A stretch of DNA of 64,000 bases from an uncultured Acidobacteriota bacterium. GTDB taxonomy: Bacteria; Acidobacteriota; Vicinamibacteria; Vicinamibacterales; 2-12-FULL-66-21. The position numbers were made by a program, and so were the translations under genes. The stretch is taken from assembly GCA_963847125.1 (NCBI GenBank), contig CAWJYM010000004.1, positions 2,851,436-2,915,435 on the forward strand, read 5' to 3'. The first letter of the stretch is position 1. Each line of letters opens with the position of its first letter. Positions 6,279-27,034 of this stretch are shown in pieces. The notes under the pieces were generated by a model, which saw nothing but the letters and a program-made list of their open reading frames with translations, had not been told where the DNA came from and searched no databases.

Positions 6279-7541
6279 ATGCCCACCCCCAGCGTGGCCA
6301 TCACCGGCATCGGCGTTGTGTCGCCTTTTGGCGTCGGCCGCGAATGCTTCTGGAGCGGCCTGCGCGCCGGGCGAAGCGGCGTGCGAGCCATCACCGACTT
6401 CGACGCCTCCATGTTCGCGTGCGGCGTCGCCGCGCCGGTTCCGCTCCTGACGCAGGCGGACATTCCGGCTATCAATGGGAACGGCCACCTCGCGGGCAAC
6501 GCGGACCCCCGGCGCTACTCGCGCACCTCGCTCGTCGCGGTCATCGCCGCCATCGAAGCCTGGAAGGATGCGGGGCTCCGCCAGGCTGAGCCGGGGGCGG
6601 GCGTGATCGTCGGAAGCGGGGCGGGCGGCATCGACGTCGCCGAACGGCAGTACAGGGAGTTCTTCACCGACGGCTGGAAACGGGTCGGTCCGTACGCGAT
6701 TCCCGTGTCGATCGTCGGCATGGTCTCCAGTGAGATCTCGATCGCTCTCGAGTTGCACGGGATCAGCCACGTGCTCTCGACCGGGTGCACGAGCTCGACG
6801 GATGCCATCGGCTACGCGGCGGCGCTCATCCGGTCGGGGGAAGCGGACGTCCTGCTGTCGGGTGGCGCCGACGCCTGCGTGACGCCGGGCATGATCTTCG
6901 GTTTCTCGAAGATGAAAGCGGTCTCGACGCACTACAACCACACGCCCGCGCTCGCGTCGCGTCCATTCGACCGTGGCCGGGACGGGTTCGTCCTCGGCGA
7001 AGGCGCATGGATGATCGTTCTCGAGCGCGAGGACCGCGCCCGTGCCCGCGGCGCGCGCGTCTACGCGACCATCGACGGCTACGCGTCGACGTGCGACGCC
7101 TACCACCGCGTGCAGATGGATCCGGACGGCGAGCAGATCATCCGCGCGATGGCCGGTGCGATCGAGCGCAGCGGCCGCGCGATCGACGAGATCGGCTACG
7201 TCAACTATCACGGCACGTCGACGGTCTTGAACGACGCGGTCGAGTCCCGCTGCGTGCGACGCCTGTTCGGCCCGCGCGCAGACGGATTGCCAGGGTCCTC
7301 GACGAAATCGATGATCGGTCATCCCCAGGGAGCCAGCGGCGCCGCCGGGGTGGTGACGAGCGCGCTTGCGCTGGCGCGCGGGTTCCTGCCGCCGACGATC
7401 AACCAGGTCGAGCCGGATCCCGAGTGCGACCTCGACGTCATCCCCAACCAGGGGCGCGAGGCCGAGCCCGCGGCCGCGCTCTGCAACTGCCTCGGATTCG
7501 GCTCGAAGAACAGCGCCCTCGTGCTGGGACGGTGTGATTGA
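6279..7541 (+). CDS. Beta-ketoacyl synthase, KAS I/II (FabF/FabB) type
   Basis: 420 aa. ITGIGVVSP, active-site STGCTSS, YH and NYHGTST His motifs, KSMIGHPQGASG. Confidence 0.9.
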   Translation: MPTPSVAITGIGVVSPFGVGRECFWSGLRAGRSGVRAITDFDASMFACGVAAPVPLLTQADIPAINGNGHLAGNADPRRYSRTSLVAVIAAIEAWKDAGLRQAEPGAGVIVGSGAGGIDVAERQYREFFTDGWKRVGPYAIPVSIVGMVSSEISIALELHGISHVLSTGCTSSTDAIGYAAALIRSGEADVLLSGGADACVTPGMIFGFSKMKAVSTHYNHTPALASRPFDRGRDGFVLGEGAWMIVLEREDRARARGARVYATIDGYASTCDAYHRVQMDPDGEQIIRAMAGAIERSGRAIDEIGYVNYHGTSTVLNDAVESRCVRRLFGPRADGLPGSSTKSMIGHPQGASGAAGVVTSALALARGFLPPTINQVEPDPECDLDVIPNQGREAEPAAALCNCLGFGSKNSALVLGRCD

Positions 7542-8676
7542 CGTCCTGGTGATCGGAGGCGGTCCGGCCGGCGCAATCGCCGGCGCTCTCCTCGCGCGCC
7601 GAGGCGCTCGCGTGCGCCTGATCGAGCGCGGCGTTTTTCCACGCGACAAGCTGTGCGGCGATACGCTGAATCCCGGCGCTCTGGCGCTGCTCGATCGCCT
7701 GGGGCTCGGAGGCGTGTCATCCGGCGGCCTCGCGGTCCACGGCATGATCGTGACGGGACCCGATGGTGGCCGCGTCCGCGTCGAAGGGCGGTACCCGGAC
7801 GGCACGATCGGGCGCGCGCTCCGCCGCCGCGACCTCGACGCGGCGATTCTCCGCGCCGCGGCGGCGGAAGGCGTTGAGATCGAGGAGGGCGTTGCCGTCA
7901 CGTCGCCGATCGTGTCGGATGGCCGCGTGCGCGGCGTCACGATGCGGGTGCGCGGCGAGGAACGGCGCCTCACGGCGCCGCTGACGATTGCCGCAGACGG
8001 CCGGCGATCGCGGCTGGCGTTCGGGCTTGGCCTCGCTCGACATCCTCGCCGCCCGCGTCGATGGGCGATCGGCGGCTACTACGGCGACGTCACCGGCGTG
8101 GCGGCGTTCGGCGAGATGCACATTCGCCCGCGCGGGTACCTCGGCGTCGCGCCGCTGCCCGACGGACTCGTGAATGCCTGCCTGGTGATCGACTCGCCGC
8201 GAGATCTCTTCGATCCGGCCGACCGGCTGGACGCCGCCGTGCAGGGAGATCCGGCAACTGCCGACCGCTTCGCGGATGCGCGCCGGTGCGGGCCGGTCTC
8301 GGTGCTCGGCCCCCTGGCCGTCGAGTCGCGGACGGCCGGGATGGCCGGATTGCTGCTCGCGGGTGACGCCGCCGGGTTCATCGACCCGATGACCGGTGAC
8401 GGGCTGAGGTTCGCGATTGCGGGCGCGGAGCTGGCGGCGCGCGCGGCGGGGGAGTTTCTCGACGGACGGCTCGCCGATTCGCACCGCGCCCTTACGGAGT
8501 GGCGCCGCGAGCTGTTCGGATCGAAGTGGCGGTTCAACAGATTTCTCCGGACGCTGGTGGCCACGCCGGCCGCGGTGCGGGTGGCGGCCGCCAGCGCGCG
8601 AGTCGTCCCGTCCGCGGTCCGGTTGGCGATCGCGTACGCGGGCGACGTGCCAGAGGCGCCGCACGCGTCTTGTTGA
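7534..8676 (+). CDS. FAD-dependent oxidoreductase, geranylgeranyl-reductase family
   Basis: GTG at 7534 directly precedes the Rossmann motif DVLVIGGGPAGA and then RDKLCGDTLNPG. It overlaps the KAS stop by 8 nt. The ORF-track start at 7366 was rejected. Confidence 0.8.
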   Translation: MIDVLVIGGGPAGAIAGALLARRGARVRLIERGVFPRDKLCGDTLNPGALALLDRLGLGGVSSGGLAVHGMIVTGPDGGRVRVEGRYPDGTIGRALRRRDLDAAILRAAAAEGVEIEEGVAVTSPIVSDGRVRGVTMRVRGEERRLTAPLTIAADGRRSRLAFGLGLARHPRRPRRWAIGGYYGDVTGVAAFGEMHIRPRGYLGVAPLPDGLVNACLVIDSPRDLFDPADRLDAAVQGDPATADRFADARRCGPVSVLGPLAVESRTAGMAGLLLAGDAAGFIDPMTGDGLRFAIAGAELAARAAGEFLDGRLADSHRALTEWRRELFGSKWRFNRFLRTLVATPAAVRVAAASARVVPSAVRLAIAYAGDVPEAPHASC

Positions 8677-12523: not shown

Positions 12524-15040
12524 ATGCCCAGCAATGCGATGCGCGGGATGCAACGGCTGTTCCCCATCGTGTGCTGCCTGACCGGCATCGCGCCGTCGGC
12601 CGCCCAGTCTGTCCCATCAACCGTCCCACCGTTGTCGTTGCGCGCCGCGGATCGCGCGCTCGCGCACGGCCAGCCGGCAGAGGCGGAGGCCATCGCCAAA
12701 GCGATGCCGGCCGACGACCCGGCGGTCGCCGTCATCCGCGCGCGGATCGCTCTCAGGTCGGGCAAGCTCGACGACGCGGAACGGCTCCTCGCGCCCGTGG
12801 CGGAGGCCGACCCCGCCGGCGAGGCCGCGCTGGAGCTGGGACTGCTCGAGATCGCGCGGGGCCGCCGGCAGGCGGCGGTCGCGCGGCTGATGGCGGTGTT
12901 CGACGCCGGCGCGCGGGGTGATCCGGACGGCGTCGCCCGAGCGGCGCGCGCGACGCGCGCGCTCGGAGACTTTCGACAGGCGAACGCGTTCTACCGTCGG
13001 GCCGCCGCGCTCGGCGACGATCCCGCCGTCGATACCGGCTGGGGGACGCTCTTCCTCGAAAAGTACAACCGCACGGATGCGGCGCGATCCTTCCGCGAGG
13101 CGCTCGCGCTCGACGCCGATTGGGCCCCCGCGCGTGTCGGTCTGGCGCGCGCGCTCACAGAGACCAACCCCAAGGCGGCAGACGAGGAAATCGAGCGTGC
13201 GCTCAAGATCGACCCGCGGCTCGTCGACGCACACCTCTTCGTCGCCGAGCGGGAGCTGGACGAAGGGCGACCTGAAGCGGCTCGGCAGGCGATCGACCGC
13301 GCGCTCGAGATCGATCAGTGGAATCTGCCGGCGCGCGCGCTCGTCGCGGCGATGGCACACCTCGACGGCCGGACCGCGGACTTCGATGCCGAGGTCGCGC
13401 GCGCGTTCGCGATCAATCCGAAGTATGGAGAGATTTTCCGGGTCGCCGGCGACCACGCCGCGCGGCACTACCGCTTCGACGAGGCGGTCGCGCTCGCCCG
13501 CAAGGCGACGGCGCTCGATCCGGACAACAGCCGCGCGCACGCCGACCTCGGCATGCACCTCCTCCGCACGGGCGACGAAGAAGGCGCGCGCAACGCGCTC
13601 GAGCGCTCGTTCCGCGCCGACCCCTACGACGTCATCACCTACAATCTGCTCAGCCTGCTCGACACGCTCGAATCGTTCGTCACGGTCGAAGCCAACAACA
13701 TCCGCCTCCGCCTTCACCCGGACGAGGCGCCGATCCTGCGCGAGTATGCGGTGCCGCTCGCCGAGCGCGCGCTGGCGACGTTGTCGAAGACGTACGGGTT
13801 CTCGCCGCGCGGCCCCGTGCTCATCGAGATCTTTCCGCGGCACGACGACTTCGCCGTGCGGAACGCCGGGCTGCCGGGGATGATCGGCGCGCTCGGCGCG
13901 TGCTTCGGCCGCGTGGTGACGATGGACTCGCCGAAGGCGCGGCCCCCCGGCACCTTCAACTGGCAGGCGACGCTCTGGCACGAGCTGGCGCACGTCATCA
14001 CCCTCCAGCTCTCGAACCAGCGCGTGCCGCGCTGGCTGACCGAGGGCATTTCGGTCTACGAGGAAGGCCGCGCCCGCCCCGAGTGGGGCCGCGACATGGA
14101 GATTCCGTTCGCGCGCGCGCTCGACAAGGGGGAGGTGCTCAAGCTCCGGGATCTGAACGCCGGGTTTACCCGTCCCGACACGATCGCGCTGGCGTATTTC
14201 GAGGCATCCCTCCTCGTCGCGCACATTGCCGGCAAGCACGGCGACGCCGGGCTGGTCCGCCTGCTCCGCGCCTATGGCGACGGACTCGACGACGCGGCCG
14301 CGCTGTCCAAGGCGTTGAACGAGACGATCGACAGCCTGCAGACGTCGTTCTCGCGCGTCATCGACGAGCGCTTCACTCCGATCGCGGTGGCGCTCCGCGA
14401 GCCCGCCGGCTTCGTGCCAGGCGGCGACGCGGAGGCGATGCGCGCCGCCGCGAGCGAACATCCGGGCAGCTATCCGGTTCAACTCGCGTACGGCCGCGCG
14501 TTGATTGCCGGCCAGAAGCCGGCTGAGGCGATCGCGCCTCTCGAGCGCGCCGTGTCACTCGTGCCGATGGCGACCGGCGTCGAGGGCGCCCGATTTCAGC
14601 TCGCCGAAGCGGCGGAAGCCTCCGGCGATCGCGCGCGCGCGATCGCGGAGCTCGAGGCGCTCCTGGCGCACGACCATACCGACGTCGAGGTGCCGCGGAA
14701 GCTGCTGACGCTGGCCGAAGCGACACGCGACGAACCTCGTCTCGCGCTCGCGAGCGAGCGCGTGGCGATGCTCGATCCGTTCGACGCGGCGCCGCATCGC
14801 GTGCTCGGGCGTCTCGCGTTCGATCGGAAGGATGCCGACGGGGCGGTGCGCGAGTTCCGAGCCGCGCTGGCGGCCGGGCCGGTCGATCGCGCCGGCGCCC
14901 ACTGCGATCTCGGCGAGAGCTATTTCCTCGCCGGCAAGCCGGGCGAGGCGAAACGCGAGGCGCTTCTGGCGCTCGAAATCGCGCCGACGTTCGAGCGGGC
15001 ACAGGACTTGCTGCTGAAAACTGTTGAGGTACGGCGATGA
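12524..15040 (+). CDS. Secreted TPR-repeat protein with embedded gluzincin (peptidase MA-like) domain
   Basis: 838 aa with a signal-like N-terminus and TPR-like Ala/Leu/Arg repeats on both sides of WHELAHV....TEGISVYEE (HExxH plus downstream Glu). The start could also be ATG 12539 or 12548. Confidence 0.75.
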   Translation: MPSNAMRGMQRLFPIVCCLTGIAPSAAQSVPSTVPPLSLRAADRALAHGQPAEAEAIAKAMPADDPAVAVIRARIALRSGKLDDAERLLAPVAEADPAGEAALELGLLEIARGRRQAAVARLMAVFDAGARGDPDGVARAARATRALGDFRQANAFYRRAAALGDDPAVDTGWGTLFLEKYNRTDAARSFREALALDADWAPARVGLARALTETNPKAADEEIERALKIDPRLVDAHLFVAERELDEGRPEAARQAIDRALEIDQWNLPARALVAAMAHLDGRTADFDAEVARAFAINPKYGEIFRVAGDHAARHYRFDEAVALARKATALDPDNSRAHADLGMHLLRTGDEEGARNALERSFRADPYDVITYNLLSLLDTLESFVTVEANNIRLRLHPDEAPILREYAVPLAERALATLSKTYGFSPRGPVLIEIFPRHDDFAVRNAGLPGMIGALGACFGRVVTMDSPKARPPGTFNWQATLWHELAHVITLQLSNQRVPRWLTEGISVYEEGRARPEWGRDMEIPFARALDKGEVLKLRDLNAGFTRPDTIALAYFEASLLVAHIAGKHGDAGLVRLLRAYGDGLDDAAALSKALNETIDSLQTSFSRVIDERFTPIAVALREPAGFVPGGDAEAMRAAASEHPGSYPVQLAYGRALIAGQKPAEAIAPLERAVSLVPMATGVEGARFQLAEAAEASGDRARAIAELEALLAHDHTDVEVPRKLLTLAEATRDEPRLALASERVAMLDPFDAAPHRVLGRLAFDRKDADGAVREFRAALAAGPVDRAGAHCDLGESYFLAGKPGEAKREALLALEIAPTFERAQDLLLKTVEVRR

Positions 15041-15846
15041 GCCACCACCGATTTCGCGGATCACGTAGCCACGGATTCCGCGGATTGCACGGATTGGTCT
15101 GCGCCGCGCTGGCGCTGGTGGTTGGGGCCTCGGACGCTTCTGAGACCCCGCAGTCCCAGGAGCGGTTTGCCGGCCTGCAGTGGACCTTCGCGCGGATCAA
15201 ATACGAAGCGCACACGCTGCCGAGGTTCCGCGGCGGTCCCTACGACGAGCCGTGGTCGATCGACTACGACGCCGCCGAGTTGAATCTGTCGCGGCGACTA
15301 CGCACGGTCACGGCCATCCAAGTCGGCGACCCCGTGGTCGTGACGATCGAAGATCCGCAGCTGTGGAGCTATCCGTGGTTGTACGTCGTCGAACCGGGCA
15401 ATATGCGGCTGAAGGAAGCTGAGGTCAAGATCCTCCGCGACTTCCTCCTGCGAGGAGGTACGCTGACCTTCGACGACTTTCACGGTCCGGTCGAGTGGGC
15501 CAACCTGGAGCGCGAGATGAAGCGGGTGTTTCCGAACCGGCCCATCATCGATTTGCCGCCGGACCATCCCGTCTACAACTGTTTCTACAAGATCGATCGG
15601 TACCCGCAAACGCCCGGCCTCGGCTCGTTCCTGATGGGACGCACCTGGGAGAAGGGGGGCTTCGTCGCTCGGCTGCGCGCGATCGAGGACGACACGGGCC
15701 GGGCGATGGTGCTGATCAACTGGAATACCGACATGGGGGACGGCTGGGAGTGGTCGAACGTCGCCGAGTACCCGGGCTACATCAAGTACACGGCCGACGC
15801 GTATCGGATGCAGATTAATGAGATCATCTACTCACTGACGCATTAG
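15037..15846 (+). CDS. DUF4159-family protein
   Basis: 269 aa. WSYPWLYVVEPG...LRDFLLRGGTLTFDDFHG resembles DUF4159 proteins that precede MoxR operons. The first ~50 nt are the repeat at 15046-15097 with low GC3, so the true start may be TTG 15085 or 15094. Confidence 0.7.
   Translation: MSHHRFRGSRSHGFRGLHGLVCAALALVVGASDASETPQSQERFAGLQWTFARIKYEAHTLPRFRGGPYDEPWSIDYDAAELNLSRRLRTVTAIQVGDPVVVTIEDPQLWSYPWLYVVEPGNMRLKEAEVKILRDFLLRGGTLTFDDFHGPVEWANLEREMKRVFPNRPIIDLPPDHPVYNCFYKIDRYPQTPGLGSFLMGRTWEKGGFVARLRAIEDDTGRAMVLINWNTDMGDGWEWSNVAEYPGYIKYTADAYRMQINEIIYSLTH
15046..15097 (+). repeat. Dispersed GGAT-rich repeat family B, copy 1 (CACCGATTTCGCGGATCACG..CCACGGATT..GCGGATT..CACGGATT)
   Basis: Near-identical to 32299-32333 (20 of 21 in the first block by eye). 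Both begin within a few nt after an upstream stop codon, in the same orientation. Confidence 0.75.
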
Positions 15847-15944: not shown

Positions 15945-16955
15945 ATGGACCAGGTATCGGGGGTGGCGACGGCCGACCGCGTCGCGGAAGGACGCGAGCG
16001 GATCCTGGCGGAGCTGCGCAAGGTCGTCGTCGGCCAGGACGAGGTCATTGAGCAGGTGTTGACGGCGCTCTTTACGGGCGGTCATCTCCTGCTGACCGGC
16101 GTTCCGGGTCTCGCGAAGACGCTCCTCATCAAGACGCTCGCCGAGATCCTCGATCTCAGCTTCAAGCGGATCCAGTTCACGCCCGATCTCATGCCGGCGG
16201 ACATCACGGGCACCGAGATCCTCGACGAGGAGGGGGGCCACCGCGCGCTGCGCTTCGTCAAGGGGCCGATCTTCGCGCAGATCATTCTCGCCGACGAGAT
16301 CAACCGCACGCCGCCGAAGACGCAGGCGGCGTTGCTCGAGGCGATGCAGGAGTACCACGTCACGGCCGCGGGCCGGACCTATCCGCTGGAGCGGCCGTTC
16401 TTCGTGCTCGCGACGCAGAACCCGGTCGAGCTGGAAGGTACGTATCCGCTGCCGGAGGCGCAACTCGATCGCTTCATGTTCAACGTCGTGATGACCTATC
16501 TGTCGGAAGACGACGAGGTCCAGGTCGTCACCGAGACGACGGGTGTGGAAACGCCGGCGCCGGCGCGGGTCCTCAGCGGCAGCGACATCATGGAATTCCA
16601 GCGGCTGGTGCGGCAGGTCGTCGTCGCCGACGAGGTCGCCCGCTACGCCGTGCGTCTCTCGTCCGCGTCCCGGCCCGGCGAGGGCGCGCCCGAGTTCGTG
16701 AACAAGTGGGTGAAGTGGGGGGCCGGCCTGCGCGCGTCGCAGGCGCTCATCCTCGGCAGCAAGGCGCGGGCATTGATGAAGGGCCGCTTTCACGTCTCCG
16801 TGCAGGACATCCGTGCGCTTTCGCATCCGATCCTGCGCCATCGCATCATCCCGAACTTCTACGCTGAGTCCGAGCGCGTGGATTCTGACAAGATCACCGA
16901 TATGCTCCTCGAGCTCGTGCCGCCGCCCAAGAGCGGCCTGGCGGTCGGCGGGTGA
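15945..16955 (+). CDS. MoxR-family AAA+ ATPase
   Basis: 336 aa. Walker A LLTGVPGLAKT, Walker B ILADEINR, ATQNP sensor region. Confidence 0.95.
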   Translation: MDQVSGVATADRVAEGRERILAELRKVVVGQDEVIEQVLTALFTGGHLLLTGVPGLAKTLLIKTLAEILDLSFKRIQFTPDLMPADITGTEILDEEGGHRALRFVKGPIFAQIILADEINRTPPKTQAALLEAMQEYHVTAAGRTYPLERPFFVLATQNPVELEGTYPLPEAQLDRFMFNVVMTYLSEDDEVQVVTETTGVETPAPARVLSGSDIMEFQRLVRQVVVADEVARYAVRLSSASRPGEGAPEFVNKWVKWGAGLRASQALILGSKARALMKGRFHVSVQDIRALSHPILRHRIIPNFYAESERVDSDKITDMLLELVPPPKSGLAVGG

Positions 16956-17854
16956 CCGCCGCGGCCGGGCTCCGCTATCTCGACCCCGCCGTCATCGCGC
17001 GGCTCGGGACGATGGAGTTGCGGGCGCGGACGATCGTCGAGGGCTTCCTCTCCGGCCTGCACAGAAGCCCTTACAAAGGCTTCAGCGTCGAGTTCGCCGA
17101 ATACCGCCAGTACCTTCCGGGCGACGATCTTTCCACGCTCGACTGGAAGGTCTACGCGCGAAGCGATCGCTTCTACGTCAAGAAGTTCGAAGAAGAGACG
17201 AACGTCGACTGCCACATCCTCCTCGACACCAGCGGGTCGATGGGATACGCGTCGAAGGGGGCGGTCACCAAGCTTGCGTACGGATCGTTTCTCGCGGGCG
17301 CGCTGGCCTACCTCATGAACCGTCAGCGGGATGCCGTGGGCTTCATCGCGTTCGACGTCCGGATCATAGAACGGCTTCCCGCGAGCGCGCGACCCGGACA
17401 CCTGCGGGCAGTGCTGCTCGCGCTCGATCGGCTCACCCTCGGGCGGCAGTCCGACGTGTCGCGGCCGCTGCATCAGCTCGCCGACACCATCCTGAAGCGA
17501 AGCATGGCGGTGCTCATCTCGGACCTGCTCGACGAGCCGGAAACGGTCATCCGCGGGCTGAAGCATCTGCGGTTCCGCGGCACCGACGTCATCGTCTTTC
17601 ATGTGCTCGACCGTGACGAGCTGACGTTTCCGTTCGATCGCGCGACGAGGTTCCGCGACCTCGAATCAGAAGCGGAGGTGCTCGCGGTGCCGGCGGTCGT
17701 GCGGGACGATTACCTGAAGGCGGTTCAGGATCTCTGCGCCGTGTACGAACGCGAGCTGCGGCTTGCAGGGATCGACTACGTGCGGCTCGACACGTCCGAG
17801 CCGCTGGATTTCGCGCTCGCGTCGTATCTGTCGTCGCGCGCAAGGCGATTGTGA
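16952..17854 (+). CDS. DUF58 protein (vWA-like, MoxR partner)
   Basis: 300 aa. LDWKVYARSDRFYVKKFEEE and MIDAS-like LLDTSGSMGY. There is a 4-nt overlap with moxR. Confidence 0.9.
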   Translation: MTAAAGLRYLDPAVIARLGTMELRARTIVEGFLSGLHRSPYKGFSVEFAEYRQYLPGDDLSTLDWKVYARSDRFYVKKFEEETNVDCHILLDTSGSMGYASKGAVTKLAYGSFLAGALAYLMNRQRDAVGFIAFDVRIIERLPASARPGHLRAVLLALDRLTLGRQSDVSRPLHQLADTILKRSMAVLISDLLDEPETVIRGLKHLRFRGTDVIVFHVLDRDELTFPFDRATRFRDLESEAEVLAVPAVVRDDYLKAVQDLCAVYERELRLAGIDYVRLDTSEPLDFALASYLSSRARRL

Positions 17855-17867
17855 CCGGGTTCCTGGA

Positions 17868-19718
17868 ATGTTGTCCTTTCTGTACCCCGCGTTTCTGTTA
17901 GGCGCCCTGGCGGCGGCAGTGCCGATCGTCCTGCACTTGATCAGGCGGGAAGCGGCGCCGGAGGTCCGCTTCAGCGCCGTCCGCCTGTTGCGGCGCGCGC
18001 CAACGGAACAGTCTCGCTGGCAGCGGCTCCGCGAATGGCTGCTGCTGGCCGCGCGGGTGGCCGCGGTTCTGCTTCTCGCGCTGGCGTTCGCCCGGCCGTA
18101 TCTCGCGGCGCAGGCAGGGCCAGGGTCCACCGTGACGATCGTCGCGGTGGACACGTCGCTCAGCATGGGCGCGCCAGGCCGCTTCGATCGCGCCCGCGCG
18201 CTCGCGCGAACCGCCGTCGAAGAAGCGCCAGCCGGCTCGTTCGTCGGCCTGCTCAGCTTCGACGATCGTCCGGCGCTGATCGTGGAGCCGATCGCCGAGC
18301 GCGGCACGGTCCTCGCGGCGATCGACGCGCTGCGTCCCGGATACGGCGCGACGCGCTACGGCCCGGCGCTCGCGCGCGCGCAGGACGCGATCCCGGGATC
18401 AGGACGGGTGGTCGTCATCACGGATCTCCAACGCGCCGGGTGGGACAACGCGGAGCGGCCACCGCTGACGGCCGGAGTCGAGGTGCGGGTGGTGGATGCG
18501 GGGGCCGACCGCACGGAGAACCTCGCGGTCGTCGGGGTTCAGCGTTCGCAGGCCGGGGTGATTGCCGTTTTACGCAATACGGGGCCGCGCGAGCGAGAGA
18601 CTCGCGTCCGGTTGTCCGCGGACCGTCGCGATGTGGCGGCCTCCCGGGTGCGCGTGCCCGCCGGCGCAACGATTGATGCGGCCTTCCCCCTGCCGGCCGG
18701 GGCCGCCGCGCTGGCCGTAACAATAGAAGATGCAGGCGGATGGCCCGGCGACGACGTGCGGCACCTGGTCACGGGAATGAGACAGGGCCCCCGCGTCATC
18801 GCAGTAACCGAACGGGCCGGTCAGGGTTTACTCTACTTACAGCGGGCTTTGGCGGCCGCTCCCGACGATTCGCGGTTTCGCGTCGAGAACGTTACCGGCA
18901 CCGGGCTGAGCCGGGCGCTCGAGTCGGGTGACCCGACCGCCGCGGTCGTCGTGGCGAGCGGGCGCGGGTTCGAGCGATCCACCCGCGAGTCGCTGGAGCG
19001 ATACGTTCGAGCGGGCGGAGGGCTTGTCGTTCTCGCCGGGCCGTCAATCGACCCCGAGGCGGCCGCGGCAATAACCGGTTTGGACCGCACGCCGCGCGCG
19101 CGCGGCGGAGAGGGGGACGTCAGGCTCGCGCCGGTCGACACGCGGCATCCGGTGTTTCACGCGTTCGGGCCGGCCGCGGCGGCGCTCGGGGGCGTACGGT
19201 TCACGCGGACCTGGGAGCTCGACGACGAGGGCTGGGACGTCATCGCGCGGTTCACGGACGGGCGCGCCGCGCTCGTCGAGCGGCGGATTGAAGGAGGGCG
19301 GGTGCTGCTGTTCGCATCGGACCTCGACCTTGCGTGGAACGATCTCCCGTTGCACCCGGCCTTCGTGCCGTTCGTGCACGAGACACTTCGCTACGCCGCG
19401 CAGGTCAGGACCGCGCCACTCGAGCTCTTCGTGGCCGACGCGCCGGCCGGCGCGCCCCGCGCGCCCGGCATCGCGGCGCTGGCCGGCGGGCGAACGGTCG
19501 CCGTGAACGTCGATCCGCGGGAGTCGGATCCCGCGCGGATGGATCCGGGAGCGTTCGGGGCTGGCCTCGGCGCGCAGCGGGCATCGAGCGCAGCCGATCG
19601 TGGAGCGGACGTTCGCGAACGGGAGGCGTCGCAGCGGTACTGGCGCTACGGGCTGATGGTGATGCTCGTTGCGCTCGTCTGTGAAGGACTGCTGGCGGGA
19701 GGGTACCGGTTTGCCTGA
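17868..19718 (+). CDS. BatA-like protein: N-terminal double-TM domain plus vWA domain plus C-terminal TM
   Basis: MLSFLYPAFLLGALAAAVPIVLHLIRR (aerotolerance-regulator N-terminal type) and MIDAS VAVDTSLSMG. Start re-called from 17763 to ATG 17868. Confidence 0.85.
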   Translation: MLSFLYPAFLLGALAAAVPIVLHLIRREAAPEVRFSAVRLLRRAPTEQSRWQRLREWLLLAARVAAVLLLALAFARPYLAAQAGPGSTVTIVAVDTSLSMGAPGRFDRARALARTAVEEAPAGSFVGLLSFDDRPALIVEPIAERGTVLAAIDALRPGYGATRYGPALARAQDAIPGSGRVVVITDLQRAGWDNAERPPLTAGVEVRVVDAGADRTENLAVVGVQRSQAGVIAVLRNTGPRERETRVRLSADRRDVAASRVRVPAGATIDAAFPLPAGAAALAVTIEDAGGWPGDDVRHLVTGMRQGPRVIAVTERAGQGLLYLQRALAAAPDDSRFRVENVTGTGLSRALESGDPTAAVVVASGRGFERSTRESLERYVRAGGGLVVLAGPSIDPEAAAAITGLDRTPRARGGEGDVRLAPVDTRHPVFHAFGPAAAALGGVRFTRTWELDDEGWDVIARFTDGRAALVERRIEGGRVLLFASDLDLAWNDLPLHPAFVPFVHETLRYAAQVRTAPLELFVADAPAGAPRAPGIAALAGGRTVAVNVDPRESDPARMDPGAFGAGLGAQRASSAADRGADVREREASQRYWRYGLMVMLVALVCEGLLAGGYRFA

Positions 19719-22700
19719 GGCCATCGGCCGGCTCATCGCGGCGGTGAGGCGTCGCTGGCTCGCGCTCGACGGTCTCGGCGCGCTCGGACGCGCCGCCGGC
19801 GCGACCGCCGTCGCTCTCGCGCTCGCCGTCGCCCTCGATCGATGGCTGCTCCTCGAGGGCTGGTGGCTGTTGGCCGTGGCAGCGGTCACGGCCTTCTGCG
19901 CCCTCGCCGCGATCGTGCTGTCGATCCGCGCGATGCGATGGCCGGACGAGCGAAAGCTGGCCCGGCTGGTGGAAGAGCGGTGTCCCGAGCTCGAGGATCG
20001 ACTCGCGACGGCCGTTGCAGTCCGCGATGCCGGCGGTCTCGCGCCGCTCGTTCTCGAGGATGCCGCCGCGCGCGCGCGCAACGTCGACCCGGCGAGCGTC
20101 GTGACGCCCGCGGCCGTCCGGCACGCCGCCTGGCGCGCGGGTGTGGCGGTCGTGCTCCTCGCGGCCGCGCTTGTCCTCGGCTGGTCTTCAATCGAGAGAG
20201 TCTGGCTGACCGCCTGGCTGCGGGTGTTCCCCGGCGCGCTTCAGGTCGTGGTCGAGCCGGGCGACGCGCGCGTCCGGGCGGGGCAGCCGCTGACGATTCG
20301 CGCGCGGCTGTCTGGCGCGCCGGCGGCGCTGGCGCGCCAGGCACCCATGCTCGTCATCGGACGCGGCGAGGGCGCACGGACGCTGCCCATGGTCTCCGCG
20401 CCGGCCGACGCTGGAAGGTCGCCCGGCCACGCCGCGGATGTCGGCGCGGTCGATCGGACCTTCACGTACTACGTGGCTGCGGCCGGCATCCGCTCGCGCG
20501 ATTACACGATCACCGCGGTCCGTCCGCCGCGGGTCACGCGCATCGACCTGCGGTATCAGTACCCGGCGTTCACCGGCCTCGCGCCGCGCACAGAAACGGA
20601 CGGCGGCGACGTCTATGCTCCCGCGGGCACCCGCGTGCAGCTGAACGTGCGCACCGACCGGCCGGTCGCCTCCGCGGCGCTGACGCTCGGCGAGAACCGC
20701 ACCGTCGATCTCAAGGCCTCGTCCTCCACGAGCGAGCTCGAAGGCGTCATCGTCGTCGATCGGGACGATGCGTACCGCGTGGCGCTGGCGGATGGGGAAG
20801 GGCTGTCGAATCCTGGCGAGACCGAGTATTTCATCCGCATGATGGACGACCGGCCGCCCGACGTGCGGATCCTGCGGCCCGGCGGCGACCGCCAGGCCAC
20901 GCCGCTCGAGGAGGTCCTGGTCGAGGCGCGCGCCGAAGACGACTACCGCATCGGCCGCTTCGATCTCGTGTTCGCGGTGCGCGGCGCCGGCGAGAAGGTC
21001 GTGCCGCTCGGCCGCGGCGGGGCCGCCGTCGAGACCGGACGCCACCTGATGTTCCTCGAGGACCTCGGCGTAAAGCCCGGAGACTTCGTCAGCTACTACG
21101 CGCGCGTGCGAGACGTCGGCCGCGGCGCGCAGGGGCGCGAAGCGCGCAGCGAGATGTTCTTCGTCGAGGTCACGCCGTTCGATCAGGAGTTCAGCCGCGC
21201 CCAGAGCCAGGCGGGCGCGGGCGGGGCAGGCGCCGGCGCGGGGCTCGAAGCCCTGATCGCGGCTCAGAAGGACATCATCAACGCCACCTGGAACCTGGAT
21301 CGCCGGGCGCGCGCGGGACGCTCCGAGCAGGACGTGCGCGCGGTCGGCAAGGCGCAGGCGGAGCTCCGCGGACGCACCGAGAGCATCGCCGCCCGGCTCC
21401 GGTTTGCGACGCGGATGAGCGCCGGGCGCCGGCGGCCGGGCACCACGGCCGCGCCCGAGCAGCCGGACGACCCGATCGGCAAGGCGATCGAGTCGATGAA
21501 GCTCGCGGAAGGCTCGCTCGACAAGCTGAGCACGAGCGAGGCGATGCCGCACGAGATGGCGGCGCTCCACGAGCTCCTGCGCGCCGAGGCCGAGATCCGG
21601 CGGCGGCAGGTCACGCAGCAGATGGCCGGTGGCGGCGGTGGGGGAGGATCCGGACGATCGGGACAGGACCTGTCGGCGCTCTTCGACCGTGAGCTTCAGC
21701 GCCAGCAGCAGACGAACTACGAGAATCGCGATACAGGCGAGCAGCAGCGCCGCGAGGATGAGCCCGAAAGCGACGCGCTCGCGAAAGTGCGGGAGCTGGC
21801 GCGCCGGCAGGACGAGCTGTCGCGCAAGCAGCGCGAGCTGGCGAACGCCAAACTGAACGAAGAGGAGCTGCGGCGACAGCTCGAAAAGCTCACTCGCGAG
21901 CAGACGGAGCTCCGCGAGCAAGCGGAGCGCCTCGATCAGGAGATGAGCCGTTCGCGGCAGGGCCAGAACCAGAACGAGAACCAGCATCAGTCCGGGCAGC
22001 AGGGCCGTTCGCTGCGCGATGCGTCTGATGAGATGCGCGGCGCGACGAGCGATCTTCGCCGGCAGGATCTCGCGGGCGCCAGCGCGCGCGGCGATCGCGC
22101 GGCCGAGCGGCTCAGGGAGCTGGAGCGTCGGATGCGGGGCCGGAATCCCGACCAGCGTCGGCGCGAGCTCGGCGAGCTTCAGGTCGAAGCGCAACAGCTC
22201 GCCGACCTCGAGCGCCGCGTCGCGGACGAGGCGTCACGCCTCGGGCGCGGCACTCCGGATTCCACGACTCGGACCCGCCTGGCGGACGAGCAGGATCGCC
22301 TCGCGGCGCGGGTCGAGTCGCTCGAGAAGCAGCTTCGCGAGATGTCGTCGACGGGACAAGGCGACGAGAAGCAGGCGGCGACGGATGCCGCACGCGAGCT
22401 GTCCCGCCGGAACGTGGGGCGGGGGATGAAGGAGTCGGCCGAGTCGCTGCGATCGGATGCCAAGGAAGGTCAGGCGCCCGACAAGCGCGGCGCAGAGCCC
22501 GGGCAGGCGGAACGGGAGCTGGCGCGCTCGCTCGACCGTGTAGCGGAACGGATGGGCGCGCAGGGAGACGCCGACGGGCGGCGGCTGGCTGACGAGATGG
22601 CCCGCGCGCGAGAAGCGCGCGATCGGTTGAACGACATGGCCCGGCGCCTCGAGCGGCTCGAGCAGGAAGATCGCGCCGCGCGCAGCGGCGAACAGTCATC

Positions 22701-23175
22701 CGGCCAGCAGCAGGGCCGGCAAGGACAACAGCAGGGCTCCGGTCAGCCAGGCGGACAGCAGCAGCAGCAACAGGGCGGTGGCGGCCGCGGCGGCGACCTC
22801 GCCCGGCTGCGCGACGAGTACCAGCGCGAGATCGAGCGCGCGCGCGAGGTGCTGCAGGGATTGCAGCGCTCGGCGCCCGACTCTGGAATGGGCGGCTCCA
22901 CGCCAGAGGAGCACGAGTACAGCATCTCCGCGCCAGGCCGCGAGGCCTTCAAGAACGACTTCAGCAACTGGGAGCGCCTGCGGAAGGACGTCTCGCTCGC
23001 GCTCGAGCGGCGTGAAACGGCCATCGCCGATAAGCTGGCCGGCAAGCGCCGGCAGGACCGGCTCGCGGCCGGCGCCGCCGACGGCGTGCCAGAGGCCTAC
23101 CGGGCGCTCGTCGCCAAGTACTTCGAGTCCCTTGCGCGGTCCGGGCGTGCGCCGGCCGCTCCGAAGCAGCCGTGA
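19669..23175 (+). CDS. Giant membrane-anchored protein, DUF4175-like, with long coiled-coil and low-complexity C-terminal half
   Basis: 1168-aa ORF with TM helices near the N-terminus and a beta-rich middle (YQYPAFTGLAPRTETDGGDVYAPAGTRV). After ~21600 it becomes E/R/Q-rich heptad-like sequence with a poly-G run and Q/G runs. The start is ambiguous (ATG 19669, or TTG 19711 overlapping the upstream stop). Confidence 0.7.
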   Translation: MRSSVKDCWREGTGLPEAIGRLIAAVRRRWLALDGLGALGRAAGATAVALALAVALDRWLLLEGWWLLAVAAVTAFCALAAIVLSIRAMRWPDERKLARLVEERCPELEDRLATAVAVRDAGGLAPLVLEDAAARARNVDPASVVTPAAVRHAAWRAGVAVVLLAAALVLGWSSIERVWLTAWLRVFPGALQVVVEPGDARVRAGQPLTIRARLSGAPAALARQAPMLVIGRGEGARTLPMVSAPADAGRSPGHAADVGAVDRTFTYYVAAAGIRSRDYTITAVRPPRVTRIDLRYQYPAFTGLAPRTETDGGDVYAPAGTRVQLNVRTDRPVASAALTLGENRTVDLKASSSTSELEGVIVVDRDDAYRVALADGEGLSNPGETEYFIRMMDDRPPDVRILRPGGDRQATPLEEVLVEARAEDDYRIGRFDLVFAVRGAGEKVVPLGRGGAAVETGRHLMFLEDLGVKPGDFVSYYARVRDVGRGAQGREARSEMFFVEVTPFDQEFSRAQSQAGAGGAGAGAGLEALIAAQKDIINATWNLDRRARAGRSEQDVRAVGKAQAELRGRTESIAARLRFATRMSAGRRRPGTTAAPEQPDDPIGKAIESMKLAEGSLDKLSTSEAMPHEMAALHELLRAEAEIRRRQVTQQMAGGGGGGGSGRSGQDLSALFDRELQRQQQTNYENRDTGEQQRREDEPESDALAKVRELARRQDELSRKQRELANAKLNEEELRRQLEKLTREQTELREQAERLDQEMSRSRQGQNQNENQHQSGQQGRSLRDASDEMRGATSDLRRQDLAGASARGDRAAERLRELERRMRGRNPDQRRRELGELQVEAQQLADLERRVADEASRLGRGTPDSTTRTRLADEQDRLAARVESLEKQLREMSSTGQGDEKQAATDAARELSRRNVGRGMKESAESLRSDAKEGQAPDKRGAEPGQAERELARSLDRVAERMGAQGDADGRRLADEMARAREARDRLNDMARRLERLEQEDRAARSGEQSSGQQQGRQGQQQGSGQPGGQQQQQQGGGGRGGDLARLRDEYQREIERAREVLQGLQRSAPDSGMGGSTPEEHEYSISAPGREAFKNDFSNWERLRKDVSLALERRETAIADKLAGKRRQDRLAAGAADGVPEAYRALVAKYFESLARSGRAPAAPKQP

Positions 23176-25367
23176 CCCTCGCCGAACCGTGGCCATGGTG
23201 GGCGCTCGTCGCAGCGCTCGCAGCCGTCGCCTTTCTTACCTGGCGCGAATACTCCCGCGCGCGCATCAGCCGCCACCAGCGCGCGACGCTCGCCGCGCTT
23301 CGCGCCGTGACGCTCCTGCTTCTCGTCCTGTTTCTGATGCGTCCCGTCGCCGTGAGCGACGGCGCTCCGCGCGGGACGGTCGTGCCGCTCCTCGTCGACG
23401 TGTCGCGAAGCATGCGCATCGCCGACGCGGGAGGCCGCCCCCGGATCCAGCGCGCACGAGAGGTGGCGGCGCGGCTCGCGCCCGCGCTGGGCCGCGAGTT
23501 CACGGTCGAAACCCTCGGCTTCGGCGAGACGCTGGACCCGCTCGACCCGCAGCGCGCCGAGGCAGCCGCCCCGAGGACCGACCTGTCGGCGGCATTATCG
23601 GCCGTCGCGGATCGCTACCGCGGCCGCGCGCTCGCCGGCATCGTGGTCATCTCTGACGGCGCCGACACAGGAGATGGCGCGGTGCCGGCCGGGATTCCCC
23701 CGATCTACACCATCCCCGTCGGATCGCCGCAGCCCCTTCGCGACCGCGAAGTGGCGGCGTTGACGATTGGAGACGCGCCGCTCTCGGGATCGATCGTCGA
23801 CTTGACCGCGACGGTCGTGAGCCATGGCTTCGACCGAAGCCCGATCGAGATCCGGGTGCTGGAAAACGGCCGGCCCTTTGCTGCGCGCCGCGTCCAGCCC
23901 GCCGCGGACGGCGCTCCGGTTCAGGAGGTCTTCCAGGTGCCGCCGCCGGGCGAGTCCGCGACCATCTATACGGTCGAGATCCCGGCCGCTCCCGACGAGC
24001 TCGTTCCCGAAAACAACACGCGGAGCGTGCTCGTTCCGCCCGCCGGACGCCGGCGGCGTCTGCTCCTCGTCGAGGGGGCGCCCGGCTTCGAGCACAGCTT
24101 TCTGAAGCGCGCCTGGACGGCGGATCCCGGTCTCGAGCTGGACGCCGTCGTCCGCAAGGGACAGAACGAGCGGGGCGAAGACACGTTCTACATCCAGGCC
24201 TCGACCGACCGCGCGCCGTCGCTCGCGAGCGGGTTCCCGGTCGATCGCAAGACGCTCTTCGCTTACGACGGGATCGTGCTCGCGAACGTCGGCGCCGGGT
24301 TCTTCGGCCGCGAGCGCGGCGACCTCGTGGAGGCGTTCGTCGGCGAGCGCGGCGGCGGCCTGCTGGTGCTCGGGGCGCGATCGTTCGCGCCGGGTGGGAT
24401 CGGCGGGACGGCGATCGAATACCTGCTGCCGGTGGTCCTCGGCGGTGCGGCGGGGCGCGACGCCACGCCGGCCGCGACCGGCGCCGGACCCAACCGTGTC
24501 GGCCTGACGGCCGACGGGCGAAGGCACCCGATCCTCCGTCTCGGAACTACTCCTGAGGAGACCGAAAAGCGATGGGCGGCCGCGCCGGCGCTGGCCAGCG
24601 TCGCGACGCTCGGCACGCCGCGTCCGGGCGCGCGTGTCCTCGCCGTCGCCGGCGGGTCGGGCAGCGGCTCTCGTCCGCTGCTCGTCCTGCAGCGCTTCGG
24701 GGAGGGCCGCACCGTGGCGTTTGGCGGCGAAGCGACGTGGCGCTGGAGGATGATGCGCCCGACCGAGGATCGCCTGTACGAGACCTTCTGGCGGCAGACC
24801 GCACGATGGCTGGCGGCATCGTCACCCGACCCGGTGATGGCGGCGGTCACCCGGGGATCGGCGCCGCGGGAAACGGCGATCGTGGATGTCACCGTCCGCG
24901 ACGCCGCGTTCGTGCCGGCGCGCGGCGCTTCCGTGTCGGTGCGCGTGCGCAGACCTGGCGGCCGCGTGGAGGAGCTCGCCGCCGAACCGGTCGATGCCGC
25001 GGCCGCGACCTGGCGGGCGCGGTTCAAGCCGTCGGAGACCGGCGTTCATGTCGTCACGGTCGAGGCCACGCGCGGCGCCGAGCGGGTCGGCATGGCGACG
25101 CGCCACCTGCTGACCGGCGGCGCCGACCTGGAGATGGCCGACCCGCGCGCGAACGAAGCGGTGCTCGCACGCCTCGCGGGGGAAACGGGAGGCGCGCTCG
25201 TGCGCGAGGCAGATATGGATCGGCTCCCCGGCATGATGGCGGCCGCCGCGGATCCCGCGTCGCCGCGCGCGACGCGCGAGCTCTGGCACGGGCCGGTGCC
25301 TATTCTCCTCATCATCGGCCTGCTCTCGGCGGAGTGGATCCTCCGCCGGCGCTGGGGACTGCGATGA
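23172..25367 (+). CDS. Membrane protein with degenerate vWA and GATase1/ThuA-like (DUF1355-like) domains
   Basis: 731 aa with N-terminal TM helices, LLVDVSRSMRI (DxSxS), LLLVEGAPGFEHSFLKRAW, GGGLLVLGARSF and a C-terminal TM. There is a 4-nt GTGA overlap with the upstream gene. Confidence 0.7.
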   Translation: MTLAEPWPWWALVAALAAVAFLTWREYSRARISRHQRATLAALRAVTLLLLVLFLMRPVAVSDGAPRGTVVPLLVDVSRSMRIADAGGRPRIQRAREVAARLAPALGREFTVETLGFGETLDPLDPQRAEAAAPRTDLSAALSAVADRYRGRALAGIVVISDGADTGDGAVPAGIPPIYTIPVGSPQPLRDREVAALTIGDAPLSGSIVDLTATVVSHGFDRSPIEIRVLENGRPFAARRVQPAADGAPVQEVFQVPPPGESATIYTVEIPAAPDELVPENNTRSVLVPPAGRRRRLLLVEGAPGFEHSFLKRAWTADPGLELDAVVRKGQNERGEDTFYIQASTDRAPSLASGFPVDRKTLFAYDGIVLANVGAGFFGRERGDLVEAFVGERGGGLLVLGARSFAPGGIGGTAIEYLLPVVLGGAAGRDATPAATGAGPNRVGLTADGRRHPILRLGTTPEETEKRWAAAPALASVATLGTPRPGARVLAVAGGSGSGSRPLLVLQRFGEGRTVAFGGEATWRWRMMRPTEDRLYETFWRQTARWLAASSPDPVMAAVTRGSAPRETAIVDVTVRDAAFVPARGASVSVRVRRPGGRVEELAAEPVDAAAATWRARFKPSETGVHVVTVEATRGAERVGMATRHLLTGGADLEMADPRANEAVLARLAGETGGALVREADMDRLPGMMAAAADPASPRATRELWHGPVPILLIIGLLSAEWILRRRWGLR

Positions 25368-25406
25368 GGGGCCGCGCTGCGTCTGTCCGGTCGGGTTCTC
25401 GCCCTC

Positions 25407-26369
25407 GTGTGGCTCGCGGCGATCGGGTCCGCGGGCGCGGCCACCGGACCGGAAGCAGACGAACGGTTTGCGCTGGTCGTGTCGGGCGCCAGCGGCGGCG
25501 AGCCGTACGCCGCGCAGCAGGCGAAATGGCGCGCGGCGCTGGCCTCTGCGCTCCGCGAGCACCTCGGGATCGATGCCGGCCGGATCACCGTCCTTGGAGA
25601 GACCGGCGACCCCGGCGGCCCGACCGGTGGCGGGTCGGCGACGGCCGCCGAGCTGCGCCGTGCCTTCACCAGCTACGCCCGGCTGAAGCAGGATGACCTG
25701 CTGCTCGTCGTGCTGATCGGCCACGGCACGGCGGACCCGGAGGAAGCGAAGTTCAACCTCGTGGGGCCTGACCTGTCCGCCGCCGAGTGGCGCGACCTCA
25801 TACGTCCGATTCGCGGGCGCGTGGTGTTCGTCAACACGTCGAGCGCGAGCTTCCCGTTCCTCGAGCGCCTGTCGGGTCCGCGCCGGGTCGTCATCACGGC
25901 CACCGATTCCATCGCGCAGAAGTTCGTGACGGTCTTCCCCGAGTATTTCATTCAGGCGCTCGTCGATCCGGCGGCCGACATCGACAAGAACGGACGCATC
26001 TCGATCTGGGAAGCGTTCAGCGCCGCCAGCCTCGCGGTGCGGCAGCACTACGAGCAGCGCGGGCAGCTGACGACCGAGCGGGCGCTCCTGGATGACAACG
26101 GCGACGGCGTCGGGCGGGAAGCGGCCACGCCGGGAGGCGACGGCTCGCTCGCGAGCCGCCTGTACCTGGATGCGCACGTCGGGCCGGAGGTTGCCACCGA
26201 TCCGGTCCTCGTCGAGCTGCTCCAGCGCCGTGCGGCGCTCGAGGCGGAGGTCGACGAGTTGCGCGCGCGCAAGCCCCTGATGCCGGCCGCCGATTATGCC
26301 GCGGAGTTCGAGCGTCTGATGATCGATCTGGCGCGCGTGTCTCGGGATATTCGCCGCCGAAAGAGCTAG
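25407..26369 (+). CDS. Legumain/caspase-fold (peptidase C13-like) protein with C-terminal coiled coil; predicted nucleophile Cys absent
   Basis: 320 aa. FALVVSG...LLLVVLIGHG (His block) and VVFVNTSSASFPF where C13 proteins carry the D/E-x-C-x-S-G block, then DKNGRISIWEAF. GTG start; the frame is open from 25368. Confidence 0.55.
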   Translation: MWLAAIGSAGAATGPEADERFALVVSGASGGEPYAAQQAKWRAALASALREHLGIDAGRITVLGETGDPGGPTGGGSATAAELRRAFTSYARLKQDDLLLVVLIGHGTADPEEAKFNLVGPDLSAAEWRDLIRPIRGRVVFVNTSSASFPFLERLSGPRRVVITATDSIAQKFVTVFPEYFIQALVDPAADIDKNGRISIWEAFSAASLAVRQHYEQRGQLTTERALLDDNGDGVGREAATPGGDGSLASRLYLDAHVGPEVATDPVLVELLQRRAALEAEVDELRARKPLMPAADYAAEFERLMIDLARVSRDIRRRKS

Positions 26370-27034
26370 GCGTCGAACCACTCGACCCGCCGCCGCTCCG
26401 GGCGGCGGAACAGGAAAATCCCGATGACCCCGGCGGCAAACCCCGCGACGTGCGCCCAGAACGCCACCCCGCCTACGTCCTGCTCGCCCGTGACCCCGAG
26501 CGACCCGACGCCGGACACGAACTGAAGCAGAAACCAGAGGCCGAGGAAGAAGATCGCCGGCACCTCGATCAGCTCGATGAAGAAGAAGATCGGGACGAGC
26601 GTCAGCACGCGCGAATGCGGGAACATGACGAAGTACGCGCCCATCACGCCTGCGATCGCGCCGCTCGCGCCGAGCATCGGGATGCGCGACGCGGGGTTGA
26701 TCCACACCTGCGCCAGCGCCGCGGCGGTGCCGCAGATCACGTAAAAGAGCACGTACCGTCCGTGTCCGACGCGGTCTTCGACGTTGTCGCCGAAGATCCA
26801 CAGAAAGAGCATGTTCCCGAGGAAGTGCATCCAGTCGCCGTGCATGAACATCGATGTCAGCACGGCCGGGAGCGAGAATGCGACGGGGACGAGCGCGTAG
26901 CGGAATACGAACCGCGTGAACTCCGCCTCGCCGAGCGTCTGCTGGTACAGGAAGACCGCCGTGTTGATCAGAATGAAGGCGACCGTGACGACAGGGGTCG
27001 TCCGTGACGGGATGACGTCGCGGATCGGGATCAC
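26366..27034 (-). CDS. Rhomboid-family intramembrane serine protease
   Basis: 222 aa. HGDWMHFLGNMLFLW and GASGAIAGVMGAY motifs. Confidence 0.9.
   Translation of the reverse strand: MIPIRDVIPSRTTPVVTVAFILINTAVFLYQQTLGEAEFTRFVFRYALVPVAFSLPAVLTSMFMHGDWMHFLGNMLFLWIFGDNVEDRVGHGRYVLFYVICGTAAALAQVWINPASRIPMLGASGAIAGVMGAYFVMFPHSRVLTLVPIFFFIELIEVPAIFFLGLWFLLQFVSGVGSLGVTGEQDVGGVAFWAHVAGFAAGVIGIFLFRRPERRRVEWFDA

Follow-up and report, generated by a model that had tools for sequence, protein, structure and literature searches.

A cysteine-free protein with a predicted legumain-like (C13) fold at the end of a MoxR/VWA gene cluster of Acidobacteriota: a probable pseudopeptidase

The last gene of a MoxR-containing cluster in the 64,000-nt stretch of Acidobacteriota DNA analysed here (the window) encodes a protein without a single cysteine. 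Its best explanation, which we regard as probable though well short of certain, is that of a secreted member of a large branch of peptidase family C13 that has no curated model. On much the same footing we favour the view that the protein is a periplasmic, Cys-less C13 pseudopeptidase serving as a binding or scaffold subunit of a MoxR/VWA envelope cluster. The two parts of this proposal differ in strength: we consider it highly likely that the window protein carries out neither Cys-type nor Ser-type proteolysis, while for the specific assignment of a scaffold role and of its partners the chances are about even. Pseudopeptidases of clan CD are already known. What is new is a large bacterial C13 branch lacking a model, its fixed place in a MoxR/VWA cluster, and the apparently repeated loss of the nucleophile with retention of the operon slot.

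The gene, its 5′ end and the signal peptide

The C13-like gene corresponds to the open reading frame at positions 25,407 to 26,369 of the + strand, which gives a 320-AA product as called from the GTG at 25407, at a locus with a GC content of about 73%. More than 4,349 homologues were found, all annotated as 'hypothetical', the majority belonging to Vicinamibacterales or other Acidobacteriota, and in an exhaustive profile search 3,452 clusters at 50% identity matched the family profile at E ≤ 1e-3. Comparison with three orthologues gave dN/dS values of 0.09–0.34. By these three lines of evidence the reading frame is a genuine gene under purifying selection and not a chance frame of a 73% GC genome. 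One homologue (P0002) is 95% identical to the window product. All sequence strings quoted in the first-pass annotation could be located in the frame, namely FALVVSG (AA 21–27), LLLVVLIGHG (AA 98–107), VVFVNTSSASFPF (AA 139–151), DKNGRISIWEAF (AA 193–204) and LVELLQRRAALEAEVDELRARK (AA 268–289). Between positions 17000 and 30000 the real genes are overlapped on both strands by spurious frames of 100–660 AA, such as the 659-AA frame at 24822–26801 (−); these frames are not genes but a product of the GC content of roughly 70%.

The GTG at 25407 is probably not the true start. Three orthologues begin at an ATGA or GTGA overlap with the stop codon of the upstream gene, and the probable true 5′ end of the window gene lies at 25364–25406 (+), where the ATG at 25364 overlaps the upstream TGA (ATGA) in the same manner. 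This ATG is offset by 1 nt from the C13-like reading frame. Deletion of one G from the GGGG run at 25368–25371 yields MRAALRLSGRVLALVWLAAIGSAGAA, a canonical signal peptide; an error in sequencing the homopolymer is the probable cause, and a real frameshift the alternative. Another possible start is the CTG at 25377, in frame and with GAGGGG before it. Homologues carry N-terminal signal peptides in the alignment, by which the segment MWLAAIGSAGAA at 25407–25442 (+) was recognized as the remnant of the hydrophobic region of such a peptide. Cleavage is predicted after AGAA, and the remnant contains no lipobox Cys. These features point to a secreted, periplasmic protein. The export of the window copy itself is uncertain, because its 5′ end is frameshifted relative to that of the orthologues.

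Family assignment and anatomy of the predicted fold

The window protein scores below every curated model. Searched as a single sequence, it had no match in Pfam, including Peptidase_C13 at E ≤ 0.1, and none of 23 close relatives matched Peptidase_C13 in Pfam at E ≤ 1; Pfam Peptidase_C14 was matched neither by the window protein nor by its close relatives. Among the NCBIfam models there was a faint match to caspase_w_EACC1 (13 bits vs. a cut-off of 140), and phmmer against the PDB returned only noise for the single sequence. With a 100-member family profile, the best PDB match was the structure of the metacaspase AtMC4 (6w8r, E = 1e-7). This match spans the N-terminal part of the fold (the 'p20' region) and ends shortly after the His, with the GHG motif of the family on the catalytic His. 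Alignment of the family with human legumain by hhalign gave E = 5e-5, the legumain sequence having been verified against PDB legumain chains beforehand. In the profile-profile comparison that the first-pass annotation had proposed, H106 of the GHG motif is aligned with the catalytic His of both enzymes, His148 of legumain and His86 of AtMC4.

A second homology search, seeded with P0226, an unusual member of the family, recovered a sister clade whose members P0189, P0248 and P0226 pass Pfam Peptidase_C13 (PF01650) with 27.9, 31.0 and 23.1 bits, respectively, at a cut-off of 22.8. The sister clade and the window clade align by hhalign with E = 7e-115 and without gaps around the nucleophile loop; by this profile comparison the two are unambiguous homologues. 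An AlphaFold model computed from a 100-sequence alignment reached a pLDDT of 93.2 and a pTM of 0.86, and replaced a mediocre first model (pLDDT 69) built from 23 close homologues. Foldseek placed legumain, GPI8 (PIGK), MALT1 and metacaspases at the top of the PDB matches of the model, with a probability of 1.0 and E-values down to 8e-9; against prolegumains about 379 columns were aligned, but at an rmsd of about 21 Å. The order of strands and helices in the model fits clan CD, with a six-stranded sheet, the His after β3 and the nucleophile position after β4. The predicted fold is that of the caspase-hemoglobinase clan (CD), and it is C13-like. The C13/caspase fold initially read from the bare sequence is borne out by the presence of legumain and GPI8 among the best structural matches of the predicted model, and the C13-like layout by the sister-clade members that pass Peptidase_C13. 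The family, which at 50% identity comprises more than 3,400 clusters, is missed by current Pfam and NCBIfam models or left as 'hypothetical'.

The first core element is strand β1 (FALVVSG; 25467–25487, +), placed by the DSSP strand E20–26 and by hhalign vs. legumain, and followed by loop L1. Strand β3 with the His block LLLVVLIGHG lies at 25698–25727 (+); its H106 (25722–25724) is invariant, being His in 323 out of 323 aligned sequences. Strand β4 and the former nucleophile loop VVFVNTSSASFPF occupy 25821–25859 (+), with S146 at 25842–25844, A147 at 25845–25847 and S148 at 25848–25850. Downstream, a 12-residue EF-hand-like loop, DIDKNGRISIWE (AA 191–202; 25977–26012, +), forms a predicted Ca2+ site. 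It reads D191-x-D-x-N-G-x-I-x-x-x-E202 and lies, in the model, between helices 177–189 and 200–217. Of the 323 sequences, 319 conform to the pattern D-x-[DNS]-x-[DNS]-x-x-[ILVM]-x-x-x-[ED], and the Pfam EF-hand_5 match to the loop is not significant (E = 0.45–0.86). Judging by these motif matches, the protein probably binds Ca2+. The last core strand, T-E-R/H-A-L-L, and the acidic loop DDNGDG that follows it were placed by conservation (AA 223–236; 26073–26114, +); the DxDxDG-like pattern of this loop is present in 237/323 sequences.

The C-terminal part (26202–26363, +) is modelled with pLDDT > 90 as an antiparallel hairpin of two helices, AA 266–287 and 294–319, with heptad-spaced hydrophobic residues and the near-invariant positions L271, L285, Y297, E302, L308 and A309. 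The C-terminal coiled coil claimed from the sequence is in this general sense correct, as a heptad-patterned two-helix hairpin in the model. Near-invariant residues also make up the loops of the cleft: GHG, FNLxGPD, N143, S148, TAT and E/Q171.

Comparison with the C13 enzymes legumain and GPI8 shows the same fold, the GHG block with the catalytic His, 40–41 residues between the His and the nucleophile loop, an x-S-G turn that follows the nucleophile, the ATT/TAT strand and the T-x-H last strand, the latter seen by inspection as T-S-H-V-M-Q in legumain vs. T-E-R/H-A-L-L in the window protein. Unlike legumain, the window protein has no catalytic Cys and, in the model, apparently only a two-helix hairpin where legumain carries the C-terminal LSAM prodomain that caps its active site. 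Asn42, the triad residue of legumain, and Arg44 and His45, its S1-pocket residues for Asn/Asp specificity, are not conserved either: hhalign sets them against P33, A35 and A36, in variable columns. Also unlike legumain and GPI8, the window protein carries the additional EF-hand-like and DxDxDG-like loops, is bacterial and, as it appears, periplasmic, and is embedded in a MoxR cluster. With the metacaspases (C14B) it shares the profile match to AtMC4, including the catalytic His, but it lacks a Pfam Peptidase_C14 match, and its secondary-structure order and motifs follow C13. Metacaspases are listed as Ca2+-dependent in Table 2 of a review of the clan (PMC4357240), in which the term pseudopeptidase occurs once.

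The MoxR/VWA gene cluster and its relatives

The C13-like gene is preceded by seven co-directional genes on the + strand. The first of them in the window encodes a TPR and Peptidase_MA_2 protein with an intact HELAH motif (12524–15040), and it is followed by genes for DUF4159 (15037–15846), the MoxR AAA_3 ATPase (15945–16955), DUF58 (16952–17854), a BatA-N and VWA protein (17763–19718), a DUF4175-like protein of 1168 AA (19669–23175) and, immediately upstream of the C13-like gene, a GATase1_like membrane protein of 731 AA (23172–25367). As had been noted at first sight, the C13-like gene is the terminal one of the co-directional cluster containing the MoxR gene. Its stop codon is overlapped by 4 nt by a convergent rhomboid protease gene (26366–27034, −). 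A rhomboid gene lies next downstream in 22 of the 76 related loci; among Vicinamibacterales-like genomes the two genes are thus a conserved pair.

Synteny was compared across 84 related loci, mostly from classes of Acidobacteriota and from Gemmatimonadota. At least one other cluster gene accompanies the C13-like gene in 82 of the 84 loci, and the GATase1-like gene is immediately upstream in 65 of 74 informative ones. The TPR/MA_2 gene is the next gene downstream in 27 of 76 loci and the next gene upstream in 5 of 74, and the gene order in related loci is a cyclic permutation of that in the window. In the predicted proteins P0130 and P0132 the TPR/MA_2 part is fused N-terminally to the C13-like domain; both are metagenome gene calls and possibly frameshift artefacts. 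In several loci the C13-like frame is connected with the upstream gene by a long stretch free of stop codons; these cases were not accepted as fusions, being a high-GC artefact.

The GATase1-like protein contains no cysteine and therefore lacks the nucleophile of class I glutamine amidotransferases; judging from its sequence, it looks like a second pseudo-enzyme beside the first. DUF4159 has been placed by Pfam, on structural grounds, in the class I glutaminase clan (PMC4702930). In some genomes DUF4159 occurs twice, flanking the module of GATase1-like, C13-like and TPR/MA_2 genes (for example at 6883–7626 and 13677–14498 of locus L089).

With the Bat (Bacteroides aerotolerance)-type operons the cluster shares the MoxR AAA_3 ATPase, DUF58, and the BatA N-terminal double-TM domain with VWA; unlike them, it adds the DUF4159, DUF4175-like 1168-AA, GATase1-like, TPR/HExxH and C13-like proteins. 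MoxR-DUF58-BatA/VWA clusters are widespread, and the titles and abstracts found on Bat-type operons tie them to envelope or stress phenotypes with no defined mechanism. One large version of the cluster, that of Acidobacteriota and Gemmatimonadota, carries a legumain-like subunit together with the GATase1-like protein and the TPR/HExxH metallopeptidase. In this respect it resembles the setting of GPI8, in that a C13-like protein is one subunit encoded with several membrane proteins. PADLOC matched none of the eight cluster proteins to the anti-phage MoxR-VWA ternary system or to another defence system; the window MoxR scored weakly against the bpMoxR model (35 bits), vs. 215 bits for AAA_3. Our literature search found no paper that treats the C13-like family or reports a C13 component in MoxR operons.

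The lost nucleophile and the proposed role of the protein

The first-pass annotation had pointed out that the nucleophile block has no Cys, and this extends to the whole protein. It had also proposed that the Cys is replaced by Ser, and that proposal found no robust support in this form. Gapless alignments with distant profiles do set the catalytic Cys of legumain (Cys189) and that of AtMC4 on S146. The corresponding loop of the sister clade, though, reads T-[PNS]-C-S-G, and its Cys falls on A147 in a gapless alignment with the window protein. Against legumain, the sister-clade Cys comes to lie on Cys189 with a one-residue deletion before S-G. We deem the closer alignment more reliable, and on it the nucleophile position of the window protein would be Ala. 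S146, taken as the Cys equivalent from motif matching and the distant profiles, was dropped once the Cys-bearing sister clade had surfaced. Across the aligned sequences, position 147 is A, S, G, V or C. Position 146 is S in 241, A in 68, G in 14, P in 13 and E in 12, which means that S146 is substituted in about 30% of sequences, and the residue differs even among relatives that are more than 58% identical.

The history of the Cys was reconstructed on a neighbour-joining tree of 323 full-length sequences with a midpoint root, the sampling being biased by the two seed queries. Fitch parsimony on this tree requires at least 8 changes between Cys and non-Cys, and the window protein belongs to a uniform Cys-less clade of 204 sequences. 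The related C13 and C14 proteins outside the family have the Cys, so the Cys-less state would be the derived one, and the sampled family appears to have gone through at least about 8 losses of the Cys. The sister clade with Cys comprises P0226, P0189, P0289, P0358 and relatives (loci L003, L004 and L089), which keep the His too; within it several replacements of the Cys by Ala or Ser have taken place. P0327, named 'C13 family peptidase' by NCBI, is itself devoid of Cys, as are P0365 and P0332, two presumed Cys-bearing examples that were discarded for this reason. The Cys-bearing P0189, P0289 and P0358 sit in exactly the same operon slot as the Cys-less forms, which would make the two forms natural active/inactive pairs. 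In the clan-CD pseudopeptidase TbMCA4 the catalytic Cys is substituted by Ser; the window family differs from it in that the Cys-homologous residue is Ala, Ser or Gly and not a fixed Ser.

With Ala147 at the Cys position and the counterparts of Asn42, Arg44 and His45 lost, the window protein most likely does not cleave peptide bonds. The cleft loops, the EF-hand-like loop, the DxDxDG-like loop and the C-terminal hairpin are almost invariant all the same, and it is this conservation that argues for a binding or scaffold role. We propose that the C13-like protein would work as a Ca2+-dependent binding or scaffold subunit, whose former substrate cleft may bind a peptide segment or a partner protein; likely partners would be the GATase1-like membrane protein and the TPR/HExxH metallopeptidase of the same cluster. 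As the nucleophile has been lost many times while the operon slot was retained, the essential job of the C13 domain in the MoxR/VWA machine may be binding, not cutting. Between the two readings offered by the first-pass annotation, a pseudo-protease used as a scaffold and a Ser-nucleophile variant, our results favour the former and speak against the latter.

A dead C13 domain could also act as a regulatory, inhibitor-like decoy: it would bind to the substrate or the active site of its target, the TPR/HExxH metallopeptidase or else a paralogue with Cys, and mask it. Active relatives are regulated in this way by pseudo-caspases, cFLIP among them, and the tight adjacency, sometimes fusion, of the C13-like gene with the TPR/Peptidase_MA_2 gene, as well as the HELAH retained by the window metallopeptidase, would suit this arrangement. 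Neither the window cluster nor the syntenic loci contain a Cys-bearing paralogue, however: there is one C13-like gene per cluster, and Cys-bearing and Cys-less forms alternate in the same slot without co-occurring. The present results do not separate regulation from scaffolding as such, and we regard the decoy as unlikely, if the best placed of the alternatives.

Somewhat less probable still is a Ser-nucleophile hydrolase or transpeptidase of clan CD, with S148 (or S146) and H106 as a Ser/His dyad. In favour of it, H106 is invariant and S148 is found in 346 of roughly 350 aligned sequences, 1–2 residues away from where the nucleophile canonically sits; the cleft loops show conservation, purifying selection acts on the gene, and the distant profiles place S146 on the catalytic Cys. 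Against S146 speak its exchange for Ala, Gly, Pro or Glu even among close relatives and the Ala at the position homologous to Cys. As for S148, the S-G pair is just as invariant in the Cys-bearing clade, where it follows the Cys directly, and it corresponds to the S-G of C-E-S-G in legumain and of C-H-S-G in metacaspase, so the conservation of this Ser predates the loss of Cys. In the model S148 stands at the N-terminus of helix 149–155, where its probable role would be that of a structural N-cap. S148 was downgraded as a replacement nucleophile on account of its invariance beside the Cys in Cys-bearing members. Checking orthologues for a conserved Ser, as had been suggested, thus yields one that is not conserved (S146) and one whose invariance is shared with the Cys-bearing clade (S148). 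Clan CD is not known to include a serine-dependent enzyme.

More broadly, the family might be active without Cys, with His106 and either Ser148 or a further conserved residue of the cleft forming a centre that is of serine type or activates water, for Ca2+-gated processing or transpeptidation of envelope proteins of the MoxR/VWA machine. The His kept in all 323 sequences and the conserved cleft loops would also be expected of an active enzyme with a different nucleophile. We give this reading very little credence; if true, it would make the family the first non-cysteine peptidase of the caspase/legumain clan. The least probable account is that the window gene is a decaying, functionless pseudogene copy, as its missing nucleophile and its conserved ATGA-coupled start, here out of frame, might suggest, but the frame of 320 codons is uninterrupted, its product shares 95% identity with P0002, dN/dS is 0.09–0.34, the Cys-less state is common to more than 200 sampled sequences of one clade whose motifs are near-invariant, and a single-base homopolymer error in GGGG is the simpler account of the frameshift.

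Across the family, positions 167, 171 and 225 (25905–25907, 25917–25919 and 26079–26081) change together, as K/R167-E171-H225 in 167 sequences and as D167-Q171-R225 in 105 sequences, the window protein included. Such a pattern would fit a contact with swapped charges close to the former active site.
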